The notes beneath the pieces were generated by a model that saw nothing but the letters and a program-made list of their open reading frames with translations, did no database searches and was not told the origin of the DNA. 20,000 nucleotides of DNA, from positions 115,235 through 135,234 of IMG/VR virus record IMGVR_UViG_3300006213_000002; one strand, given 5' to 3'. The stretch comes from an uncultured virus (IMG/VR IMGVR_UViG_3300006213_000002). Its lineage: Duplodnaviria; Heunggongvirae; Uroviricota; Caudoviricetes. Position numbers and translations under genes: made by a program. Shown here piece after piece: positions 525 to 18,317 of the stretch (positions are counted from its first letter, which is position 1; every line of letters begins with the position of its first letter).

Positions 525-1731
525 AAATTATCTATGTCCGCTTAAAATTCTTTTAATTGCTGGGAGTTCTTGTTAAGTTAATTCAACCGCGGTATTATAG
601 TAATATAATATGCAGCATATATCATAATGGATATAGGATGGTAAAATCGAATTAAATAGAGATAATCAGCAAATAATTATATTGATTCTAATTTTAATTA
701 TAAATTACTAAAGAAAGGAGGTATATAATAATATGAAATATAATAAATCTATGTTAAATAATGCATATAATGATTTATTACAAGAAAAAGATATTAGATC
801 TATGGAATTATTTGATAAACATTATTGTGAATTATCAATAGCAGAAATAGATAAATTAGAAAAATATATGTATGATTTATCTAATCCTATATGGAAACCT
901 ATAATGATAGATGGTAAAGATAGTGGATATAAGATTAGTAATATAGGTACAGCAGTTGATTCAAATAATAATGAATTAAAATATTATCAAAATTCATCTG
1001 GTTATTTAGTTATCTGGATTCATATAAAAGGTAAACGTAATAATGTACCTAAATCTATTCATAGATTAGTAGCAGAATCATTTATTCCTAATCCTGATAA
1101 TAAATCAGAAGTGAATCATATTAATTGCAAACAAAATATGAATTGGGTTGGAAATCTTGAATGGGTAACGCATGAAGAAAATATACGATATATGATAAAT
1201 TGTGGTAATCAAGTTATAGGAATGAATCATAAAAACTCTAAGTTTACTGATGAACAAATACATTTAGTTTGTAAAATGCTTGAAAATCCTAATAATGATA
1301 TTAAAACTATTTCAGAAAAAACTAAAGTATCACTTAGAACTATTCAAAATATAAGATTTTATAATGGGTGGAATCATATAAGTGGATTATATAATATAAA
1401 TAGATCTAAGTATGTTAAAGGTCCTAAATTTAGTTATGTTTCTAAAATAATATCCGATATGGTTAATAACGGAAAAACAAATTCTGAAATACGAAATAAA
1501 TTGCATGAATTAGGTTTAGATTTAAATATAACAAGTAAGAGTATTAGTGATAGAATATATCATATACGAAAATTAGAATCAAATAAAACTTCATCGACTA
1601 TCGAAAAGCTATGATATAGGATTATTAACCATATCAATATAGTTAGTAGAGTATACTTATAATAGTAGAAATGAAGGACATTATGAAGATATAGTCACAA
1701 CATTTATAGAAATATAAAGATAAGATAATTG
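525..1731 (+). mobile_element. Group I self-splicing intron in gyrB
   Basis: Exon end GCGGAT(519-524) pairs with GTCCGC(536-541), with a U.G wobble at the splice site (P1). ATCTAT(530-535) pairs with 3' exon GTGGAT (P10). Core elements: P AATTGCTGGGA(555-565), Q AATCAGCAA(664-672), R TTCATCGACTA(1590-1600), S AAGATATAGTC(1686-1696), P9 GAAA hairpin 1703-1718, terminal G1731. Removal restores DAD|VDG in frame. Confidence 0.95.
733..1614 (+). CDS. Intron-encoded HNH homing endonuclease (NUMOD4-like + HNH_3 + C-terminal HTH-like region)
   Basis: IWKPI...YKISNIG, HRLVAESFIPNPDNKSEVNHIN...NLEWVTHEEN; RBS AAAGGAGG. The ORF is looped out by a 14-bp stem (682-695/1569-1582) and its 3' end overlaps the intron R element. 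Confidence 0.92.
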   Translation: MKYNKSMLNNAYNDLLQEKDIRSMELFDKHYCELSIAEIDKLEKYMYDLSNPIWKPIMIDGKDSGYKISNIGTAVDSNNNELKYYQNSSGYLVIWIHIKGKRNNVPKSIHRLVAESFIPNPDNKSEVNHINCKQNMNWVGNLEWVTHEENIRYMINCGNQVIGMNHKNSKFTDEQIHLVCKMLENPNNDIKTISEKTKVSLRTIQNIRFYNGWNHISGLYNINRSKYVKGPKFSYVSKIISDMVNNGKTNSEIRNKLHELGLDLNITSKSISDRIYHIRKLESNKTSSTIEKL

Positions 1732-2652
1732 GTGGATGGATTATTTATTAGAAGTCTACTTATGGCATTCTTCTTTAGAGTATTACCAGAAATTATTTTG
1801 GATGGTAGATTATATATAGCAGAACCACCTCTATATAGAGTTGATAATCCAAAAGATCCATTTGTAATTAATAAAGAAGATTATAACAATCGATATGTAA
1901 AAGAGTGTATGAAATATTATCAGATAGGATATCCTATTATAGATAATGGAGTAATAGTTGACGTTAATATTTTAAATAAAAATGATATTAAAGAATTATT
2001 ATCTGATACATCATCTTATGTTAAAGACATAGAATTATTAGCTAATCATTATAGGATTAATGAAAGATTATTTGAGATAATAATTGAAGAAGTAGCATTA
2101 ATGAATATCGATGTCAATTTATGTGCAGATATACAGAAGGATATTATTGATAAAATCAATATACAACATCTTGTGACAAGAATACAAGCAGAATTTCCAG
2201 AAGTATATTATGATGACAAATTTAAGTTAATACGAGGATCAATAAATACTGTTAGACAATTAATTGAATTATCACCTAACATAATTAAGAAGTCTAAAGT
2301 AATAATTAATTATATTATAAAATGGAAAACTGCACAGACTAAATTAGTATTAAGAGATAATAAAACAAAAGCAGAAAGATTATTATCATTATTAGAATTA
2401 TTAAAAGTTTTAAGAAAATATCAACCTGATATCAAGCATCGTTTTAAAGGTTTAGGCGAGAATGATACAGATGATATACGAAAGACTATTATGGATCCTA
2501 ATACTAGATCACTTATAAAAGTAAATATAAGTGATATAGAAAATGATGAAAAAATCTTTCAGATGTTAAGGGGTGGAACTGCACAAAATGCATTAGATAG
2601 AAAAAATATGATGCATAATTATAGTATACCAGTCGAGTTAATTGATACGTAA
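1732..2652 (+). CDS. gyrB: DNA gyrase subunit B, final exon
   Basis: VDGLFIRSLL, LYIAEPPLY, RFKGLGEN, TIMDPNTRSLIKV are the canonical C-terminal GyrB motifs; no RBS before the track's 1729 start. Confidence 0.93.
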   Translation: MDGLFIRSLLMAFFFRVLPEIILDGRLYIAEPPLYRVDNPKDPFVINKEDYNNRYVKECMKYYQIGYPIIDNGVIVDVNILNKNDIKELLSDTSSYVKDIELLANHYRINERLFEIIIEEVALMNIDVNLCADIQKDIIDKINIQHLVTRIQAEFPEVYYDDKFKLIRGSINTVRQLIELSPNIIKKSKVIINYIIKWKTAQTKLVLRDNKTKAERLLSLLELLKVLRKYQPDIKHRFKGLGENDTDDIRKTIMDPNTRSLIKVNISDIENDEKIFQMLRGGTAQNALDRKNMMHNYSIPVELIDT

Positions 2653-3177: not shown

Positions 3178-3187
3178 ATTATATATT
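3178..3187 (+). promoter_or_regulatory. Putative phage promoter motif ATKATATATT
   Basis: ATTATATATT in the intergenic gap upstream of an RBS; the motif recurs in 7 intergenic positions. Confidence 0.55.
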
Positions 3188-3223
3188 CTAATAATGTAAA
3201 AAATTGAAAGGAGATATTTTATT

Positions 3224-4024
3224 ATGCCAAGAAAGAAACTTGAAACACCAGAAGAAGAACTTGATATCAAAAAGGAGGTAAAGAAGGAAACATTCATAAC
3301 ACGTTGGTTCAATGATTATGCAGTTAATAACAAAGAAGAAATGAAAATTATTTGCGAATTAACTGCAAGATCTGTATATGAACAATTTACATTATATGTA
3401 GAATCAAAGAATTATGAATTATATGCAGCTGTATTCTATGCAACTTTTACAACAATTCTTGATTTTCTTAGGGGAAAAGAAAATAAGTATAATAATTTTA
3501 CTATTGAAGTTGCTAATAGCATAAATATAGGATATAGTAATAGCACAAATGAGGACAATGAAAAAGTAGGTAACTTTATGCCTATATTGGAGTATATAGG
3601 TACAAATATGAAAGTTGTTGACAATAGTCCTGAATCTGAAAAGAAAAAGGATGTTAATAGAACAAAAACGAATTGCATGAGATGGAAACAAATTAATGTT
3701 AAACAAAATATCAATTTCGTTTCAGAAATACAGGAAACTGCATATGAACGTATCAAGAAGGAATATAGAACTGATATGAGAACATCAGAATGTGTAATTC
3801 CTATATTCTGTATATTCATGGATAACATTATTCATGTTATCAAATTAAAATACCAAGAATTGGAAGGCACAGATGTATCAGAAGTGTCGATGAATGTATT
3901 AGGATTATTTGATATATATTATTCTTTTAATTCAGAAGATAATATTGAAATTATAGAATTCCAACCTAATATAAGAATGAAGTTGGCATTGAAAAATGAT
4001 GTTGCAGCTGGAAAGGATGAATAA
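3224..4024 (+). CDS. Putative tandem HU/IHF-like DNA-binding protein
   Basis: C-terminal half IFCIFMDNIIHVIK...EVSMNVLGLFDIYY...IEFQPNIRMKLALK mirrors the HU helix2/strands/FxP-helix3 pattern; the N-terminal half has a similar layout. Strong RBS. The CDS is secure but the function is tentative. Confidence 0.5.
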   Translation: MPRKKLETPEEELDIKKEVKKETFITRWFNDYAVNNKEEMKIICELTARSVYEQFTLYVESKNYELYAAVFYATFTTILDFLRGKENKYNNFTIEVANSINIGYSNSTNEDNEKVGNFMPILEYIGTNMKVVDNSPESEKKKDVNRTKTNCMRWKQINVKQNINFVSEIQETAYERIKKEYRTDMRTSECVIPIFCIFMDNIIHVIKLKYQELEGTDVSEVSMNVLGLFDIYYSFNSEDNIEIIEFQPNIRMKLALKNDVAAGKDE

Positions 4025-6455: not shown

Positions 6456-6534
6456 TTAATTTTGAAATAAACATGAATTATTTTCATGCTTATTAATATA
6501 TTAATAAAGTTTTAATTTTAAGGAGGAATTTAAA

Positions 6535-6792
6535 ATGAGTAACATTGAAGAAAAGTATCTTTTAAAAGATGGAGAAACAGTGCCTGAGGGTTATGTTGTA
6601 AAAACATGTGAAGTATGTAACAGATCATTTGCAATGCCTGCAGATGTTGCAGAGAAATCAGGACCAATTTGTGAGTCAGCTGAGTGCAAAAATGAATATG
6701 AAAGAAGATGCATAGAGCAAACAAAAGCTCTTATGAAATCAGATACAGCAACGCAAACAGAAGCGGAAATCAAAACAGCACTTGGAAATTAA
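6535..6792 (+). CDS. Small zinc-finger protein
   Basis: KTCEVCNRSF...PICESAECK (CxxC-x18-CxxxxC); AAGGAGG RBS; own terminator. Confidence 0.75.
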   Translation: MSNIEEKYLLKDGETVPEGYVVKTCEVCNRSFAMPADVAEKSGPICESAECKNEYERRCIEQTKALMKSDTATQTEAEIKTALGN

Positions 6793-6796
6793 ACAT

Positions 6797-6835
6797 ATAA
6801 AAGAGTGGGATATAATTCTCACTCTTTTATTTTTG
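6797..6835 (+). terminator. Intrinsic terminator
   Basis: ATAAAAGAGTGGGA-6nt-TCTCACTCTTTTAT plus T-run. Confidence 0.85.
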
Positions 6836-6855
6836 TTGTTAAAGGAGAAAAGTAT

Positions 6856-7605
6856 ATGGGAAACAATAATGAGTTAAAATATATAACAGAAGAAGAATTA
6901 GATAAAATTTTTAAATTTTGGCCATTTAATTTATTACATGAAATATTTGGTGTAAATATTGATTGTATCTATACGAATATTAATAATATTCATACAGTAT
7001 TAACAGCACCTGATTTGTTAAGTGAAAAAGAATTAGATGTAATATTATATAGATTTAAATCATATATGATATTTAGTGATATTGCAAAAAAGGTGAATGT
7101 TACTAAACAAAGAGTGACTGAATTGCAAAATCATGCAATATTTAAGTTAAGAAGAATAATGAATTTCGATTTGAAGAGCATTGATTATAGAACGTATAAC
7201 GAGATTAATGGAAAATATAATACATTACTTAAATCATATAAAGAATTAGAAAAATATGAAATCATAGGAGAGGATATAAAGGAAAAAAATAAATCTGAAA
7301 TGTATAAAGACATTAATATTGCAACTTTAAGACCAAAAATGTCTAATAGGTTGTTTAATTGTTTATATAGAGGAGATATATATACAGTATATGATCTAAT
7401 TAATATGGATATTTATAGAGCTATGAAAATTAGAAATTTTGGTTTAAAAACTTTTGAAGAATTATTAGTAATTCTTAAAGCAAATGATTTAACTTTAAAA
7501 AGAGTAAGAAATAGAAAATATGAATATGATGATATATTAAATGCTTCTAAATTATATATAGAATTAATTGGTAAATCACCATTTATAGAAGAGGAGGAAG
7601 AATGA
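6856..7605 (+). CDS. Sigma70 region-4-like HTH fused to RNAP alpha C-terminal domain
   Basis: LSEKELDVILYRF...FSDIAKKVNVTKQRVTELQNHAIFKLR (sigma r4) and MSNRLFNCLYRGDIYTVYDL...KIRNFGLKTFEEL (alpha-CTD). Start revised to 6856 (AAAGGAG RBS). Confidence 0.85.
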   Translation: MGNNNELKYITEEELDKIFKFWPFNLLHEIFGVNIDCIYTNINNIHTVLTAPDLLSEKELDVILYRFKSYMIFSDIAKKVNVTKQRVTELQNHAIFKLRRIMNFDLKSIDYRTYNEINGKYNTLLKSYKELEKYEIIGEDIKEKNKSEMYKDINIATLRPKMSNRLFNCLYRGDIYTVYDLINMDIYRAMKIRNFGLKTFEELLVILKANDLTLKRVRNRKYEYDDILNASKLYIELIGKSPFIEEEEE

Positions 7606-7931
7606 GTTTTAAAATAAATAATACATTAAAAGATACCATTGATATGAAATCAGTTTATACAACTTTTATCGTATGTGATTCTCCTGATCAGTTAAAATAT
7701 TTACATAGAAAATTTATGGATCTGGTATTATCAACAGACGAATTCTTATATGCTAATAAAGATTCTATTATGACAGATGATAGACATAAATATGTATTTT
7801 GTTTTTATTCTAATTATGAAAATCTTAACCGTGGTATTGGAATGAATCAAAATAAAATTACTGGAATAATTTTTGAATCTATGATGAATTCATTTATTAA
7901 TGGAGGAAGCAAAGAATGGGCAAGTATATAA
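7602..7931 (+). CDS. Hypothetical protein
   Basis: 109 aa; ATGA overlap with the upstream gene; GAGGAGG RBS. Confidence 0.75.
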   Translation: MSFKINNTLKDTIDMKSVYTTFIVCDSPDQLKYLHRKFMDLVLSTDEFLYANKDSIMTDDRHKYVFCFYSNYENLNRGIGMNQNKITGIIFESMMNSFINGGSKEWASI

Positions 7932-8527
7932 CTGAAGATGACAAAGAAAAAATATTAATGTTATGGCCGTATAATCTCAGTAAAGTTATATTTAAAGATG
8001 ATAACCCATTAGAAATATCTTTAACAGGATTAGATTTAGCATTATCACATTTAGATGTAGATAAAATTAAATTAATTTTATTACGTTATCGAGAATACAT
8101 GACTTATGATAAGATAATGAGTATAACTGGATTAGAAGACGTAGATAAAATTAATGAAAAAATTCATATTGCTATAACAATATTAAGATCATATGCTGAT
8201 TGTATTAAAAGTAAATCAATAAAAGAATTTGAATATCCTATAAGCAAAACTAAGATACATTCAGATATATTAAATATAAATTTATCTGTTATTGATATAC
8301 ATCCTTTAGCTATATGGGAATTAAAACAAAATGGAATTGATAATATTCTTAAATTAACTAAGATGGCACCACATGAATTATGGTACACTAAATATATAGG
8401 TCAATCTAGATTTATTAAAATATTAGAATATTTAAAATCCCATGAATTGTCATTATCATGTGACGATAATGTTGAACTTAATTATCGTAAATCTTATAAG
8501 ATTTACAAACAATATTTTTCAGATTAA
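7916..8527 (+). CDS. Divergent paralog of the sigma-r4/alpha-CTD fusion protein
   Basis: KYITEDDKEKILMLWPYNL vs KYITEEELDKIFKFWPFNL; ILLRYREYMTYDKI; LKQNGIDNILKL...KYIGQSRFIKILEYLK (degenerate alpha-CTD HhH). Confidence 0.78.
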   Translation: MGKYITEDDKEKILMLWPYNLSKVIFKDDNPLEISLTGLDLALSHLDVDKIKLILLRYREYMTYDKIMSITGLEDVDKINEKIHIAITILRSYADCIKSKSIKEFEYPISKTKIHSDILNINLSVIDIHPLAIWELKQNGIDNILKLTKMAPHELWYTKYIGQSRFIKILEYLKSHELSLSCDDNVELNYRKSYKIYKQYFSD

Positions 8528-8541
8528 AAAAAATAAATATG

Positions 8542-8576
8542 AAAGGGTGGTATTATTATACCACCCTTTATTTTTT
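8542..8576. terminator. Intrinsic terminator between convergent genes
   Basis: AAAGGGTGGTAT-tatt-ATACCACCCTTT plus T-run. Confidence 0.85.
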
Positions 8577-8736
8577 ATCCATATTTATATCCAGGCTGAT
8601 TAGATTGAGCATTCAAAATTCTATTTCTAATTTCTGTATCAATAAGATCTTGACGTGCTTTTTCTTGTTGTGCTTTAACAGCTTCCTGAATTTTCTTTTC
8701 TTCTTCTGCTGTAAATTTAATTGTTGAATTAGCCAT
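8575..8736 (-). CDS. Small helical protein, 53 aa (not in ORF track)
   Basis: MANSTIKFTAEEEKKIQEAVKAQQEKARQDLIDTEIRNRILNAQSNQPGYKYG*; AGGAGGT RBS; TAATG coupling to the upstream ORF. Confidence 0.8.
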   Translation of the reverse strand: MANSTIKFTAEEEKKIQEAVKAQQEKARQDLIDTEIRNRILNAQSNQPGYKYG

Positions 8737-9533: not shown

Positions 9534-10256
9534 TTGGTTACTAATAGAAAATATATAGAAAAGTTAATATATGATACATATGATGCATTAGATCCATCTG
9601 GTACTAATACTCAAAAATATAGATCTATATTAGAAAATTTATCTGATAAAGAATTTGAAAAGTTTTTTAAAGATTTTTTAAAAGACGAACATGAAAACTT
9701 TGTGTTAGATATTGTAGAGTTAGAAAGACCAATAAAAATGGAATATTGTCAAAAAGCAGCTAAAGTTGTTGGTATACCATTAATGGAATATGTATATATG
9801 CCACATCTTACTATGGATAAATCTAATGTAATAGTATCAAAAGAAAAATGTCTTGTAGGATTTATGAATATTAAAAGACCACAACAAATGGTTTATAAAA
9901 AGAATTCATTATCCATATCAGATGAAAAACGTTCGGCTACTACTGGTCAGGTTGTAGCTAAAGATAAAAATGCACGTGATAGTGATATTGAAGCTTCATT
10001 GTTAGTATCTTTAGGAGCAAATAAAATACTAGCTGAGTTTCATGGACCAAGAGCTGATGATATTATAATGAAACGACAAATGAATCAAAGTATAAAGAAT
10101 AAGGGATATGTAATATTAGATGAATTAGAGAATCTTCCTACTAACAAGGTTACTCTTAATACTGTAAATACATATTTATTATCTATGATGCTTAAGTCAG
10201 ATCTTGTATCAGATACATATATTTTACCTAAAACATCTGAAGAATTATTTACTTAA
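9534..10256 (+). CDS. Phage RNA polymerase beta subunit, C-terminal fragment
   Basis: VGFMNIKRPQQMVYKK...RSATTGQ...ARDSDIEASLLVSLGANKILAEFHGPRADD aligns by eye with RpoB VGYMYMLKLNHLVDDK...YSLVTQQ...QRFGEMEVWALEAYGA...KSDD. TTG start, AAGGAGGT RBS. Confidence 0.8.
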   Translation: MVTNRKYIEKLIYDTYDALDPSGTNTQKYRSILENLSDKEFEKFFKDFLKDEHENFVLDIVELERPIKMEYCQKAAKVVGIPLMEYVYMPHLTMDKSNVIVSKEKCLVGFMNIKRPQQMVYKKNSLSISDEKRSATTGQVVAKDKNARDSDIEASLLVSLGANKILAEFHGPRADDIIMKRQMNQSIKNKGYVILDELENLPTNKVTLNTVNTYLLSMMLKSDLVSDTYILPKTSEELFT

Positions 10257-10955: not shown

Positions 10956-13109
10956 ATGTCAGATAACGCCTATGAAGAGCTTGAAGTCTACGATTTACCT
11001 ACTATACGTACAATCGAAGATTGTGAACGTGAATTTCCTGATGTCATAATTATTTCAAGGTATGATACATATGAAAAATTTGATGAATTGTATTATAAGG
11101 TTTACTACGCATTATGCGCATGTATAGAAATAAAGGAATGCGCAGGATATCCTATAAAATTCAAATTTTATCCAGATGAAGATCATATTTATAGTTTATC
11201 TATGGCTAAATTCTTATTGAATTTAAATGCATGGAGACCATTAATAGAATTGCATAGTCTTAGTGATTATTATAAAAGACAGATAGAAGTTCTTGATGAA
11301 AGTTTCATAGTTGGTACAATGATGTCTGATTCAATGAGAATGGGTTTAGAATCAAAAGTATTAAAAGTATTAAATGATTATGGAATTGATTTTAGTAGAA
11401 CTTCTATATTGTTAAAAACAGTTATTGAGAGATATCAAGAAGCATCTATCGAGTTTGCTCTTACACGAGGTAGTAGTGTTCTAACATATGAAAGTATATT
11501 TCTTAATGACTATAGGACATCAGAAAAAATTAGAGAATTAAATAACTTAAAAATACCACAAAGTTTACAGACATCAGAAGTAGAAGATGTATTACGTGAA
11601 AAGACTAATGAACTTATTACAGAACTAGGTAGAACAAAGAATCCTATATGGTATATAAGTAAAGCTGGTAATCACATAAAACAAAAACAGGTACAGGAAT
11701 TATATATTTCATATGGTCAGATTCCAGATGTATCAGGTAATGTTATTCCTTATACAATGCAAGGTAATGGTTTTTCTACTGGCTATCTTGATCCTGCTAC
11801 ATATTATATTGCTGCAACTGGATCTAGATTATCAGCTATTATGAATAAAGCACATATGGGTGAAGCAGGTTATTTATCACGTAATTTGATATTAGCTAGT
11901 AGAACTATGACATTATCTAGAACTATGTATGATTGTGGAACAAAACATATGTTACATTTAAAAGTAACTGATAGTACATTCTTACATAGATTAGAGAATA
12001 AATGGTATTGTGAGCATTTAGGTCAGCCTTTAAGATTAATTCATTATGCAGATTGTAAACATCTTATAGGTAAAACTATATGGGTACGATCACTAATAAC
12101 ATGTGCTGGTGGAAATGAAGTATGTCATGTATGTTATGGTAATGATAGTAATCTTGTTATGAATATGCCAGGTATGGCTATATTTAATACAGAGGTGTAC
12201 TCGGAGCCTGTTGGACAAAATATTCTATCTACAAAACATTTATTATTTACAGCTGCTAATAAAATTGTATTCAGTAATTCTTTCAATAAATATTTTAAAT
12301 ATGATTCTGGTGATATATATATGAAAGAAAAAGATGAATGGGATTTAAATATATCTGCAGAAAATTTTACTATAAGAATAGAAATAGAAAATGTAATTCC
12401 TATCAATAAACAAGACTTAGCAGAATATAATACATTTGGTAATCATATTGAATCACCTTTCTATATTTATAATAAGAAAGATAATACATATGATAAAATT
12501 GAGATTATAAATTATGAATCCATGTTTATTGATGCAACATCTATGAAGAGTTTCAAAATAATTACTGATAAAAAGAATAATAAACAATATTATGAAATTC
12601 CGTTAGATGTTTTATCATCTGATCTTGAAGGTAGATTATTGTCCATTGATATTAAGAATAATGGATTAACAGATAATCTTTATATGATCATGAATATTCT
12701 TAATAAAAATGCAAATAAATATGAAACCTATGATCAATTAGCACAGGAATTCTTTGAAATACTTATTAATTCAGGAATTAGGTGCAGGCATGTGCAAGCA
12801 GAAGTTATTCTTAATAGACTTATTAGAGATGCTAATAATCTTTATAATAGACCTGACTTCTCACAATTCAAACAACCTGAATACAAGATACTTACATTGA
12901 ATCAAGCTTTATTAAATACTAAAGCTCCTACTATAGGATTTTCATATCAAGAAGTTAAAAGACAAATTTTATCAGATGCATTATATGAAGATAAAGATGG
13001 ATCATCATTCTTGGATCCTTTATATGCAGATAAAATTAGTACGGATCATTTAAGAGAGTTAGTACAAAAGATAAGTGAAAGGAGAAAAATGAGACATGCA
13101 ACAGCCTAA
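10956..13109 (+). CDS. Phage RNA polymerase beta' subunit, C-terminal part (bridge helix, Zn site, trigger loop)
   Basis: EAGYLSRNL, DCGT, VRSLITC-x6-CHVCYG, SEPVGQNILSTKH, HVQAEVILNRL. No NADFDGD, as expected for the split beta' of phiKZ/AR9-like phages. Confidence 0.92.
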   Translation: MSDNAYEELEVYDLPTIRTIEDCEREFPDVIIISRYDTYEKFDELYYKVYYALCACIEIKECAGYPIKFKFYPDEDHIYSLSMAKFLLNLNAWRPLIELHSLSDYYKRQIEVLDESFIVGTMMSDSMRMGLESKVLKVLNDYGIDFSRTSILLKTVIERYQEASIEFALTRGSSVLTYESIFLNDYRTSEKIRELNNLKIPQSLQTSEVEDVLREKTNELITELGRTKNPIWYISKAGNHIKQKQVQELYISYGQIPDVSGNVIPYTMQGNGFSTGYLDPATYYIAATGSRLSAIMNKAHMGEAGYLSRNLILASRTMTLSRTMYDCGTKHMLHLKVTDSTFLHRLENKWYCEHLGQPLRLIHYADCKHLIGKTIWVRSLITCAGGNEVCHVCYGNDSNLVMNMPGMAIFNTEVYSEPVGQNILSTKHLLFTAANKIVFSNSFNKYFKYDSGDIYMKEKDEWDLNISAENFTIRIEIENVIPINKQDLAEYNTFGNHIESPFYIYNKKDNTYDKIEIINYESMFIDATSMKSFKIITDKKNNKQYYEIPLDVLSSDLEGRLLSIDIKNNGLTDNLYMIMNILNKNANKYETYDQLAQEFFEILINSGIRCRHVQAEVILNRLIRDANNLYNRPDFSQFKQPEYKILTLNQALLNTKAPTIGFSYQEVKRQILSDALYEDKDGSSFLDPLYADKISTDHLRELVQKISERRKMRHATA

Positions 13110-13624: not shown

Positions 13625-13634
13625 ATGATATATT
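13625..13634 (+). promoter_or_regulatory. Putative phage promoter motif ATKATATATT
   Basis: ATGATATATT between the terminator and the RBS. Confidence 0.6.
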
Positions 13635-13659
13635 CTCTATATAGAAAGGAGATGGATAT

Positions 13660-15599: not shown

Positions 15600-15609
15600 A
15601 TTATATATT
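15600..15609 (+). promoter_or_regulatory. Putative phage promoter motif ATKATATATT
   Basis: ATTATATATT in the 44-nt gap before the kinase gene. Confidence 0.55.
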
Positions 15610-15641
15610 CTTATTATAGATAAGAAGGGAGGTTTATATAC

Positions 15642-18317
15642 ATGAGGAAAATTCTTAGATCATTAATATTAGAAAAATTTCCTTTAGATCTAAGAGTAAA
15701 ATTAGATTTATTGTCTAGACGTAGAGATATTACAAATGAAGAAAAACATGATGAGTTATTAAATATTCTCAAAAATAGTGATGTCAAAATTGATAGACAA
15801 TTAGGACCTGGAACTAATCGATATGCTGTAAATATTAATGGTTTCGTTGTTAAATTTGCTACTGATCATGATGGAAAAATTGATAATATGAAAGAATTTA
15901 AAATGGCAAAAAGATTATTTCCATATGTATCAAAGACATATGATGTTAGTCAAAATGGAGTATTATTAGTAGCAGAATATATTCCGCCATTTATAAGCTT
16001 TACTGAAATGTTACAATATGCAGATCAGATAAGGGAAATTCTTAGAAAAATTTCAGCTGTATACTTAATAGGTGATGCTGGAATATCAGATAAGAATTTT
16101 GGTAATTGGGGATTAAGACCTGGAACCAATGAACCAGTATGTCTAGATTTTGCATATGTATATGAAGTATCATCTAGATTATTTGTTTGCCCTGAATGTA
16201 AAGTAGGGGCAATGTTAGTACCGGATAATGATTTTAAAGATCTTTATTGTTCTAATAAAGCATGTGGTAAAAAGAAATTATTTGAAGACATTAGAGCAAA
16301 AATTGGTAATGATATTCATAATCATGAGATTGGTGATCTTTCTGAAGAAGGATATAAATTAACAGAATCCTTTACAGAAACAGAATTGACATTAGAAAGA
16401 TCTAATTATCTTGTAAAGAAGCTTAAAAAAGAAAAAGATGAATATGATGAAAATATTAATCATATTACTGATGAAGAATCAGAGAAAGAATCCATTATAA
16501 TTAAGGAGGAAGAAATTATGGATAACAAATTTATTACAAATGTAACAGTAACAGCGGCAAATGCAGCAAAGAGAAATCCTAATTTATTTAAACTTAAGGA
16601 TAGACCAAATCCAAAAGTAGTTGCTCAAGTAAAAACTGAAAATGAACATTTAGATACAATTGATAATGAAGCAGAAGAAACTCAGGAAGAATTAGCTGAA
16701 GAAGCTATTGAAGAAACAAAAAAGCCTGAAGCTAAAGTTGCTTTTTCCGGATCATTTAATGATTTCGTTTCAAATGTAGAAGTTAAGGTTTCAACTCCAG
16801 CTAATAAAGGAGTAAAGAAAACGGTTGAACCAAATAAAGAAGACACTTCAGAATGGATTCCAATTGAAGATCGGTTCTATGATTCATTTGTGGATAATGC
16901 ACATAAAGCAGTATCATTGTTAGCTAATCGTATTACATTTGATTTGAAAAATATTCAAATATTTGATAAAGTTAAAACAACAATGAAGAGAAATATGTAT
17001 CCAGAGACATTTTACAATAATATCCAAAATTGTGTATTTTTGTCTTTGGTAGATTATCTTAACTTCATAGAAACTGAGGTTCCAAAGAAGGATTCAAATG
17101 AAAAAGCAATTATCTTTATTCCACCGATTGAAGCAGGTTCTGATAATTTTGATCACAATACAATGATGTTTATTCAACGTATATATTTAGATAAGGAATT
17201 ATCAAATGAAAAAAATCCTGAAAAGATTGTGGATTTAGCTGATGATCTGTATGGTGATGCGGCTACATTCATTAATTCAGAATGGTTATTTGTTCTTGAA
17301 GATAAACTGAAGAGAAAAATGAAACTTACTGTAGCAGGAGCTAAAATAGTAACTGATAGAATTGATGAAATATGGTGTGATAGTTTTATTGATGAAAATA
17401 CTTCTATGAATCTATCTGAAGAAGCTAATGATGATAATTCATTTGAAGATACAGTTACAGTGAATCCTGAAAATACTTATGAAGATATTTATGGTAACCA
17501 AGATGAAGAAGGTGAAGAATATGTAGATGCAGATGAAGTTGTTAATGAAGATGAAATGACAACTATCGACATATATCCTGAAGATGATGTTGATATTATT
17601 AAATTATATTCTGTGGATGCTTTTGGTGAAACCAATATTCCTATTTATATAAGATTAGCTGAAATCGATATTGAGGAATCAAAACAATATAATACTTTTG
17701 AGGATAATGGATATTGGGATTGGTTAATTCATATAGTTCCAGATATAATGTTTAGAACAAAAAATCCTCAGAAGTGGTTAGAAATTAATAATGAAGAATA
17801 TGAAGAAGATGATTCCCAAGTTCATACTGCTATAATGCAGAAATGTAAATCATTAACTGACGGAAAAGATGAATATGTTATGGGGTTATTTAACCTTAAA
17901 GGTATTTATCTTGTGGATGATGATTATAATAGAGAATTTATAATGGATCCTATTCTTCTTGAACAGCTTAATGCAGCAATTAATACTGCTTTAAGTGGAA
18001 CAATCATGTCCCATAGACATAGATCATTAAGAATGACACAATTAATATATGATGAATCATATATAAAGATGATGTTAAATAATAATGAATCTAATGAAGA
18101 TGATACAGAATCAAATACAGATGAAGAATCTCCAATTAATGATGAGACACAAGATGATTCTACTAAGAAAGAAGGAAATCCAGAAACACCTGAGGAAACA
18201 GTAACTAAAGAAGAAAGTGAAACTGTAATTACTGAGGAAACAGTAGAAGAACCAAAAGAAGAAATACAACAGACAACTTCTTCGGCAATGAAGCCTGTAA
18301 GAAGAAAAAGATCATAA
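15642..18317 (+). CDS. Ser/Thr protein kinase-like domain + Zn ribbon + long acidic C-terminal region
   Basis: LGPGTNRYAV (Gly loop), VVKFA, NMKE, IGDAGISDKNFG (catalytic loop), CLDFA (DFG-like), CPEC...CSNKAC. Confidence 0.82.
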   Translation: MRKILRSLILEKFPLDLRVKLDLLSRRRDITNEEKHDELLNILKNSDVKIDRQLGPGTNRYAVNINGFVVKFATDHDGKIDNMKEFKMAKRLFPYVSKTYDVSQNGVLLVAEYIPPFISFTEMLQYADQIREILRKISAVYLIGDAGISDKNFGNWGLRPGTNEPVCLDFAYVYEVSSRLFVCPECKVGAMLVPDNDFKDLYCSNKACGKKKLFEDIRAKIGNDIHNHEIGDLSEEGYKLTESFTETELTLERSNYLVKKLKKEKDEYDENINHITDEESEKESIIIKEEEIMDNKFITNVTVTAANAAKRNPNLFKLKDRPNPKVVAQVKTENEHLDTIDNEAEETQEELAEEAIEETKKPEAKVAFSGSFNDFVSNVEVKVSTPANKGVKKTVEPNKEDTSEWIPIEDRFYDSFVDNAHKAVSLLANRITFDLKNIQIFDKVKTTMKRNMYPETFYNNIQNCVFLSLVDYLNFIETEVPKKDSNEKAIIFIPPIEAGSDNFDHNTMMFIQRIYLDKELSNEKNPEKIVDLADDLYGDAATFINSEWLFVLEDKLKRKMKLTVAGAKIVTDRIDEIWCDSFIDENTSMNLSEEANDDNSFEDTVTVNPENTYEDIYGNQDEEGEEYVDADEVVNEDEMTTIDIYPEDDVDIIKLYSVDAFGETNIPIYIRLAEIDIEESKQYNTFEDNGYWDWLIHIVPDIMFRTKNPQKWLEINNEEYEEDDSQVHTAIMQKCKSLTDGKDEYVMGLFNLKGIYLVDDDYNREFIMDPILLEQLNAAINTALSGTIMSHRHRSLRMTQLIYDESYIKMMLNNNESNEDDTESNTDEESPINDETQDDSTKKEGNPETPEETVTKEESETVITEETVEEPKEEIQQTTSSAMKPVRRKRS

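Follow-up and report, generated by a model that had tools for sequence, protein, structure and literature searches.

What does a phage that encodes its own RNA polymerase (RNAP) do with small proteins assembled from the promoter-reading modules of bacterial RNAP? In bacteria, the upstream half of a promoter is recognized by domain 4 of sigma-70 and the C-terminal domain of the alpha subunit (alpha-CTD), and most activators work via these two modules. The question is raised by two genes, here called A and B, in a 20,000-nucleotide (nt) stretch of DNA (the window), which forms the final 20 kb of the 135-kb record of an uncultured Caudoviricetes virus (IMG/VR IMGVR_UViG_3300006213_000002; G+C content of about 25%). 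A near-identical sister record (289,059 bp, with direct terminal repeats and an estimated completeness of 100%) carries the same genes. The original prediction, made from the letters of the window and its open reading frames (ORFs), had described both products as paralogous fusions of sigma domain 4 and an alpha-CTD that mimic the upstream promoter-recognition surface in a phage with an alpha-less RNAP. It had placed both genes exactly (Table 1), and the motifs that it singled out (KYITE, WP(F/Y)NL, SNRLFNCL, RNFGLKT, HPLAIWEL, and KYIGQSR) are all present in the translations. As we describe below, A and B belong to a family that seems large, mostly phage borne, and so far uncharacterized, and that probably controls transcription. 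The family plan consists of a (W/Y)P(F/Y)NL motif, a sigma-70 domain 4 helix-turn-helix (HTH), a heptad-repeat linker, and an RNAP alpha-CTD.

The alpha-CTD of A was recognized above threshold by Pfam RNA_pol_A_CTD (PF03118; 43.2 bits at residues 143 to 208, with a cutoff of 23.8; 43.8 bits in a six-frame search). Sigma70_r4 (PF04545, cutoff of 24.1) gave 23.1 bits on the protein (residues 55 to 99) and 25.8 bits in a six-frame search of the complete sister genome. The best sequence matches in the PDB were alpha subunits (RpoA) of Firmicutes, with E values of 1.5e-6 and weaker. A structure model of A was built on an 80-row family alignment (mean pLDDT of 88.4) and compared with 48,161 chains by VIA-align. 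Residues 147 to 215 superposed on the alpha-CTD of Bacillus subtilis (1z3e_B; Z score of 10.1, root mean square deviation [RMSD] of 1.7 A over 67/67 residues, 37% identity), and residues 35 to 105 superposed on domain 4 of many sigma factors (Z scores of 9.4, for 3vep_D, and below). Foldseek retrieved the same two sets of structures with weak E values (0.0045 and up). The family profile aligned with A over positions 4 to 206 of 207 (E value of 8.4e-36).

B is more divergent. Pfam models gave no match in hmmscan, RNA_pol_A_CTD reached only 11.8 bits (E value of 0.055; below the cutoff of 23.8) in the six-frame search, and NCBIfam rpoA models matched weakly (E value of 4.8e-5, residues 78 to 182). 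The profile search that the original prediction had proposed as a check therefore came out positive for the alpha-CTD of A, borderline for its sigma module, and negative for both modules of B. A BLASTP comparison of A with B (E value of 4e-8) was significant over the N-terminal 73 residues only. The relationship of B to the family was instead detected with hhalign, in which B and its 78%-identical ortholog aligned with a 15-row family alignment over residues 10 to 182 (probability of 98.5, E value of 2.7e-15); the C-terminal part alone gave a probability of 93 (E value of 3.4e-7), compared with 0.2 and 0.9 for two crossed controls. In the model of B (pLDDT of 88.4), residues 115 to 181 superposed on 1z3e_B (Z score of 10.1, RMSD of 1.6 A, 67/67 residues, 16% identity) and residues 30 to 99 superposed on sigma domain 4 (Z score of about 8); as the family alignment was the basis of this model, it agrees with the proposed homology but is no separate proof of it. 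The proposed two-domain composition was thus recovered for A by Pfam, PDB comparison, and modeling, and for B by hhalign and modeling.

The word "paralogous" needs a narrower sense than the original prediction gave it. The alignments place A and B in the same family, and a recent duplication was not demonstrated. When B was ranked with phmmer against 222 proteins, its best nonself matches were other family members (31.8 bits), and the first A-type sequence, an A ortholog, scored 22.7 bits; a recent origin of B from A is unsupported by this ranking. Between B and its ortholog, 39/45 residues of the N-terminal part and 53/62 of the alpha-CTD-like part are identical, compared with 7/21 (and 8 gaps) in the linker. 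This conservation suggests that the degenerate alpha-CTD-like domain of B is under constraint and still used.

To define the family, we searched 1.84 billion cluster representatives exhaustively with A using HMMER and obtained 878 at an E value of 1e-3 or lower. Leaving aside the cluster of A itself, we examined the 149 top-ranking representatives: 136 contained both the N-terminal (motif plus sigma-4) and the C-terminal (alpha-CTD) module, and the order was N then C in 135 of these 136. In a 51-row alignment, 49 rows matched both Pfam families, the exceptions being B and its ortholog, and an Xre-type HTH_3 domain was added in 10 rows. The ESM Atlas held many clusters of 50 to 180 members with both families, mostly with viral labels and with automatic names only. 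A scan of IMG/VR with the 15-row alignment confirmed at least 521 of 588 candidate stretches; about 27 full-length fusions were present among the 80 loci kept, on contigs of 4.6 to 259 kb with 28 to 59% G+C. The phylogenetic distribution, which had been named as a further check, is accordingly wide and centers on phage contigs. Full-length fusions were also found in at least 2 of 400 sampled Clostridia-class genomes, a floor because seven candidates were scored per genome. In three Clostridia genomes, the family profile matched rpoD (83 to 86 bits) and rpoA (90 to 93 bits) only. A scan of genome contigs with one family member was dominated by rpoD genes (matching residues 12 to 84 only) and yielded no clear full-length fusion locus; one member is 45 to 50% identical to the rpoD C terminus in many bacteria.

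Named relatives were scarce. Among INPHARED genomes there was no DNA match; tblastn with A hit two records through the alpha-CTD part alone, tblastn with B hit none, and a canonical member hit 13 records, all with less than 80% of the query covered. A word-based homolog search returned two near-identical relatives each for A and B. Source databases call family members "hypothetical protein" or "RNA polymerase sigma factor (sigma-70 family)" or leave the name blank. NCBIfam and PHROGs contain no dedicated family model, and a full-text literature search, with subscription journals and supplements outside its coverage, found no paper on the fusion, in keeping with the original view that the system had not been characterized.

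The genomic context of the family was surveyed using 138 ORFs at 23 loci plus one further locus, with one locus lacking a called target ORF and three near-duplicates left out. Neighbors included DNA methyltransferases, helicases, DnaD-like loaders, single-stranded DNA-binding protein (SSB), RusA, HNH nucleases, and Arc/Xre regulators. Family loci in ordinary phage contigs thus lie in the early/replication module, which is the usual place of regulators. One short relative is flanked by portal and scaffold genes.

The remaining 13 of the 149 best representatives lack the sigma-4 module and carry 2 to 4 tandem copies of the alpha-CTD in proteins of 227 to 786 amino acids (aa), and ten fusion members have 2 to 5 alpha-CTD copies each. 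The tandem-repeat proteins look like a second uncharacterized architecture based on the alpha-CTD.

The capacity of these modules to contact DNA was assessed from column tallies across 77 family rows. The signature motif is conserved at P (71/77), N (67/77), and L (65/77). In the recognition helix of the HTH, the prevailing residues are T (54), R (48), E (62), and R (69), then R (67) and Q (71), followed by R (65), K (64), L (69), R (63), H (48), and P (60), so that the family consensus reads like that of a primary sigma factor. We take these positions to be the -35 contacts of sigma-70 region 4.2. In the alpha-CTD, R165 and G196 (A numbering) are invariant (77/77), N168 and C169 occur in 72/77 and 68/77 rows, position 198 is K in 49 and R in 16, and position 199 is S in 59 and T in 10. 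These positions presumably correspond to the "265 determinant" of the Escherichia coli alpha-CTD; the numbering offset is consistent with the VIA-align ranges (A residues 145 to 217 on residues 249 to 317 of 4mex_A).

A carries the full alpha-CTD contact set, and its recognition helix is altered, with T88, E89, and F96 replacing the family R (67/77), Q (71/77), and R. B has the contact residues of both domains replaced and retains the hairpin glycine alone. The net charge of the recognition-helix segment is +6 in the family median, +4 in A, and -2 in B. The predicted contrast between an A that keeps its alpha-CTD contacts and a B that has lost them was therefore borne out by the column counts, whereas the notion of a -35/UP surface mimic describes the family consensus and does not carry over to A, where R and Q have given way to T88 and E89. 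As read from the alignment, A has the motif, both modules in order, and the linker, with the conserved DNA-contact residues in its alpha-CTD only; B has the motif and both modules without the linker, and keeps the contact residues in neither.

In the linker, the share of hydrophobic residues across the family peaks at A positions 114, 117, 121, 124 (90%), 128, and 131 (87%). Spacing of 3 to 4 residues is a coiled-coil signature, and the linker of A is probably a coiled-coil dimerization segment. B has a 26-column gap here, and its model shows a disordered stretch at residues 103 to 113.

Neither protein can be classed as a sigma factor or an alpha subunit on its domain content. At an E value of 1 or lower, no Sigma70_r2 or Sigma70_r3 match was found in A or B with Pfam, and NCBIfam sigma models match through their last 50 to 60 positions only; lacking region 2, both appear to fall outside the sigma-70 family of sigma factors. 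The N-terminal dimerization/assembly domain (RNA_pol_L/RNA_pol_A_bac) is likewise absent by sequence, which sets them apart from RpoA. The closest parallel is the RNAP holoenzyme itself, where alpha-CTD and sigma region 4, the same two folds, stand side by side on UP and -35 DNA (PDB 3N97; also 1LB2 and 1Z3E for the alpha-CTD). Unlike the holoenzyme, the fusion is a single chain without the alpha N-terminal domain or sigma regions 2 and 3, and it adds the (W/Y)P(F/Y)NL motif and the heptad-repeat linker; moreover, the -35-reading residues are changed in A, and contacts are lost in both domains of B.

Several phage proteins share one side of this design. T4 gp33 reportedly sits on the beta flap and does not bind DNA. 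Phage G1 gp67, for its part, is said to block use of the alpha-CTD and UP element. According to PMC3694059, gp67 binds domain 4 of host sigma-A. It targets the same upstream-promoter interface, and its complex (4g6d) was among the structural matches of the sigma-4 domain of A (Z score of 6.1); gp67 is a ligand of sigma domain 4 with an unrelated fold, whereas A and B are copies of the polymerase domains themselves. gp33 and the "minimal" phage sigma factors, each a single sigma-type HTH that binds the beta flap, are likewise phage-encoded, stand-alone proteins of the sigma domain 4 type (PMC7824862, survey passage), and gp33, unlike the fusion family, has no alpha-CTD. RinA and ArpU, small late-gene activators of Gram-positive phages, are described in a passage of PMC3152322 as similar to sigma region 4 and as binding upstream of promoters; they lack an alpha-CTD and are encoded just upstream of terS, whereas family members lie in early/replication modules. 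AR9 gp226 and phiKZ gp68, sigma-like fifth subunits of the nonvirion RNAP, share the jumbo-phage setting and a promoter-proximal function with A and B. The gp226 passage of PMC9209446 lists sigma-2-like, finger, and first sigma-4-helix elements; gp226 lacks the HTH and alpha-CTD, and A and B lack the sigma-2-like part.

The arrangement of the locus is given in Table 1.

Table 1. Features of the A-M-B locus and of neighboring parts of the window (window coordinates)
Feature	Position	Strand	Details or basis
Topoisomerase II large-subunit (GyrB-like) gene in two pieces (Toprim/DNA_gyraseB; DNA_gyraseB_C) with intervening HNH endonuclease ORF	3-545, 733-1614, 1729-2652		
Cys-rich ORF, 85 aa	6535-6792	+	ORF list; paired cysteines
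Terminator-like hairpin	6797-6830	+	14 pairs and T run, 25 nt ahead of the A start codon
Gene A, 249 aa	6856-7605	+	Sigma domain 4/coiled-coil/alpha-CTD fusion; ribosome-binding site AAAGGAGAA upstream
A signature (W/Y)P(F/Y)NL	6919-6933	+	Residues 22-26 (WPFNL)
A sigma-70 domain 4 (HTH)	6958-7170	+	Residues 35-105; recognition helix altered at T88, E89, F96
A linker helix	7186-7302	+	Residues 111-149; heptad a/d pattern; predicted coiled-coil dimerization linker (model)
A RNAP alpha-CTD	7294-7500	+	Residues 147-215; DNA-contact positions R165, N168, C169, G196, K198, T199 kept
ORF M (middle), 109 aa	7602-7931	+	Start overlaps A stop; end overlaps B start
Gene B, 203 aa	7916-8527	+	Degenerate relative with the signature motif; sigma-4-like and alpha-CTD-like folds joined by a short disordered linker
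B signature WPYNL			Residues 17-21; translation and A/B/family alignment
B sigma-4-like domain	8003-8212	+	Residues 30-99; recognition helix net charge -2
B alpha-CTD-like domain	8258-8458	+	Residues 115-181; R, N, C, K, S contact positions replaced
Terminator-like hairpin	8542-8569	both	12 pairs; bidirectional; closes the operon
RNAP beta-like gene	9534-10256		phrog_3233
Unannotated ORF, 168 aa	10329-10835		Between the two beta-like genes
RNAP beta-like gene	10956-13109		phrog_3015

Judged by this layout, A, M, and B form one operon with terminator-like hairpins at both ends; all three genes have good ribosome-binding sites, and their stops and starts overlap. A terminator scan found 6 terminator-like sites, compared with 0.5 expected from shuffles. 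Scanning for sigma-70-type promoters gave 34 sites, compared with 46.2 expected, and is uninformative in DNA this rich in A/T. The hairpin ahead of A could be a regulated terminator or attenuator that gates the operon. Because the gap between it and A is too short for a promoter, transcription probably enters from the 310-nt spacer 5' of the 85-aa ORF, the likeliest place for the predicted promoter region, and this ORF probably leads the transcription unit. Its zinc-finger matches in Pfam were all below threshold (E values of 0.012 to 0.17), and it may encode a zinc-ribbon protein cotranscribed with the operon. For ORF M, no Pfam or NCBIfam match was found, and the PHROG match was weak (E value of 0.011). 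In the ESM Atlas it falls in unnamed clusters only, and the Atlas model of M (pLDDT of 0.59) shows a faint similarity to the ATPase part at the N terminus of large terminases (TM scores of 0.51 to 0.64, all below the bar for naming).

From these data we infer how the two proteins might bind DNA, dimerize, find their targets, and affect transcription. In the reading that we prefer, at a probability of roughly 0.45 and therefore tentatively, A regulates transcription as a stand-alone DNA-binding protein, probably a dimer, and B is a DNA-blind relative that acts by protein contacts. The alpha-CTD of A would sit in an A/T-rich minor groove via its retained contact residues, and the HTH would read a neighboring major-groove site; given the changed recognition helix, the sequence of this site would depart from the canonical -35 hexamer. 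Bound upstream of promoters, A could block or help an RNAP. B, with both folds kept, would act through protein-protein contacts, for example, at a site where sigma domain 4 or the alpha-CTD normally docks, and could thereby modulate A or a polymerase. The original prediction had cast B as a partner or antagonist of A, yet B lacks the heptad-repeat segment by which A is expected to dimerize; occlusion of host promoters, sequestration of activators, and redirection of RNAP, also proposed there, would be alternative modes of action.

Several points weigh against this reading. A has no candidate binding site, and, with T88, E89, and F96 in place of canonical recognition residues, the HTH may not read DNA. 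The dimerization is a prediction from the heptad pattern. A phage with its own RNAPs may not need to regulate host-type promoters. Finally, the family consensus is so near to region 4 of the host primary sigma factor and to the RpoA CTD that docking on RNAP could fit equally well.

That last point opens an alternative that we consider unlikely but substantive: the sigma-4 domain of A, B, or both takes the place of host sigma domain 4 on the beta flap, inhibiting -35-dependent host transcription or retargeting the enzyme, while the alpha-CTD adds to or competes for upstream DNA contacts. It would account for the closeness of the family profile to host rpoD region 4 in the three Clostridia genomes and for the member nearly half identical to the rpoD C terminus, and the models of A and B do superpose on sigma domain 4 of holoenzyme structures. 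A survey passage in PMC7824862 describes the flap as binding HTH domains of the sigma type and T4 gp33 as using this site, and the conservation of B despite its lost DNA contacts fits a role in protein binding only. Docking on the flap would not need the conserved N-terminal extension or the coiled coil, however, and no gene for a sigma-2-like partner lies nearby. A related idea, that A and/or B are decoys titrating binders of sigma domain 4 or the alpha-CTD (host activators, anti-sigma-type factors, or defense sensors), with B a pure decoy that does not bind DNA, is the one we doubt most. Regulators are known to target both domains. The retention of both folds in B without DNA contacts, and its conservation, would suit such a role, as would the structural neighbors: the best match of both models is an alpha-CTD in complex with Spx (1z3e_B), and the sigma-4 matches of A include the anti-sigma complexes 3vep, 5wuq, and 8jzt. 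Yet the decoy reading has no candidate partner, and the family-wide conservation of DNA contacts argues that DNA binding is the core activity.

The presence of phage RNAP genes suggests a third possibility, which depends on what the phage itself encodes. Two beta-like genes lie about 2 kb downstream of the operon, and the sister genome has more beta-like and beta'-like pieces elsewhere. No alpha N-terminal domain (PF01000) was found in the complete 289-kb sister genome, although all 14 control genomes matched; together these observations indicate a jumbo phage that brings its own alpha-less RNAPs, as the original prediction had it. A might then dock through its sigma-4 domain on the flap of such an enzyme (virion or nonvirion) and supply the missing HTH and alpha-CTD contacts in trans, with B as a competitor that does not bind DNA, the two forming, for example, a promoter-class switch. 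Published accounts leave room for this: in the AR9 passage cited (PMC9209446), gp226 is a sigma relative without an HTH, and upstream DNA is touched nonspecifically, and the jumbo-phage survey passage (PMC7824862) reports no sigma factor in RNAP-encoding jumbo phages and assigns no flap partner. Two other jumbo records, of 249 and 259 kb, carry one family member and two phage beta-like genes each. In both, tens of kilobases separate the fusion gene from the RNAP genes, and in AR9 the position of the sigma-4 helix is already occupied by gp226 (PMC9209446, same passage).

Taken across the family, the evidence runs against such a link. A beta-like gene was found in 0/19 further family-bearing viral records (0/7 among those at least 90% complete), the complete 136-kb and 200-kb family-bearing records have no phage RNAP gene, and a 96-kb record gave a 13-bit match only. 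Clear RNAP gene matches were present in 2/24 other family-bearing viral records. The ancestral role of the family thus appears independent of phage RNAPs, the family did not evolve for alpha-less enzymes, and the tie that the original prediction drew between the fusions and an alpha-less RNAP fails as a family trait (0/19 further records; a clear RNAP in 2/5 large records). For this phage alone, we hold docking on the phage enzyme to be quite improbable. Among the large records compared, this phage alone carries two family members, against one in each of four others.

Returning to A as a DNA-binding regulator and B as its DNA-blind relative, the fusion can be viewed as a putative transcription regulator assembled from the promoter-reading modules of the polymerase. 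Members of this widespread phage family combine copies of the two modules in one small, probably dimeric protein. At the same upstream promoter DNA, such a protein could act as a competitor of the host enzyme, imitate it, or redirect it. What appears new at this locus is the pairing of an intact and a degenerate copy in an RNAP-carrying phage: a natural contrast, within one operon, between a copy with intact alpha-CTD contacts and a DNA-blind copy. Work on a single member would shed light on the handling of host or phage transcription by many gut phages.

The stretch from 6500 to 8600 was present in 20 public sequencing runs from 9 studies, labeled mouse gut or feces, where a run was counted if at least half of the sampled words were present. 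No RNA run was listed among them; one run guessed to be RNA had three matching pieces of 18 to 24 bases only and is probably DNA. The two runs covering the operon were near-identical, with 2 substitutions and 1 single-base gap. At position 7918, both of the other runs covering it (2/2) have T instead of G, which makes the start codon of B ATT rather than ATG and replaces W106 of ORF M with L; in strains with this T, B may start from a noncanonical codon or by coupling to M.

Elsewhere in the window, the products include one virion protein and one baseplate-like protein, and 3' of the beta-like genes are several ORFs without a family match, one of them of 891 aa (15642 to 18317). The motif TATATATTCT, a candidate phage promoter element, was not seen ahead of the A operon. 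The motif or a one-mismatch copy of it occurs at 3180 to 3189, 13627 to 13636, and 15602 to 15611, 33 to 44 nt before the start codons at 3224, 13660, and 15642, and its 9-mers are enriched in the intergenic DNA of the 135-kb record (16 to 17 intergenic regions). The topoisomerase II gene at the left end of the window looks as if it has been split by a homing endonuclease or interrupted by an intron.

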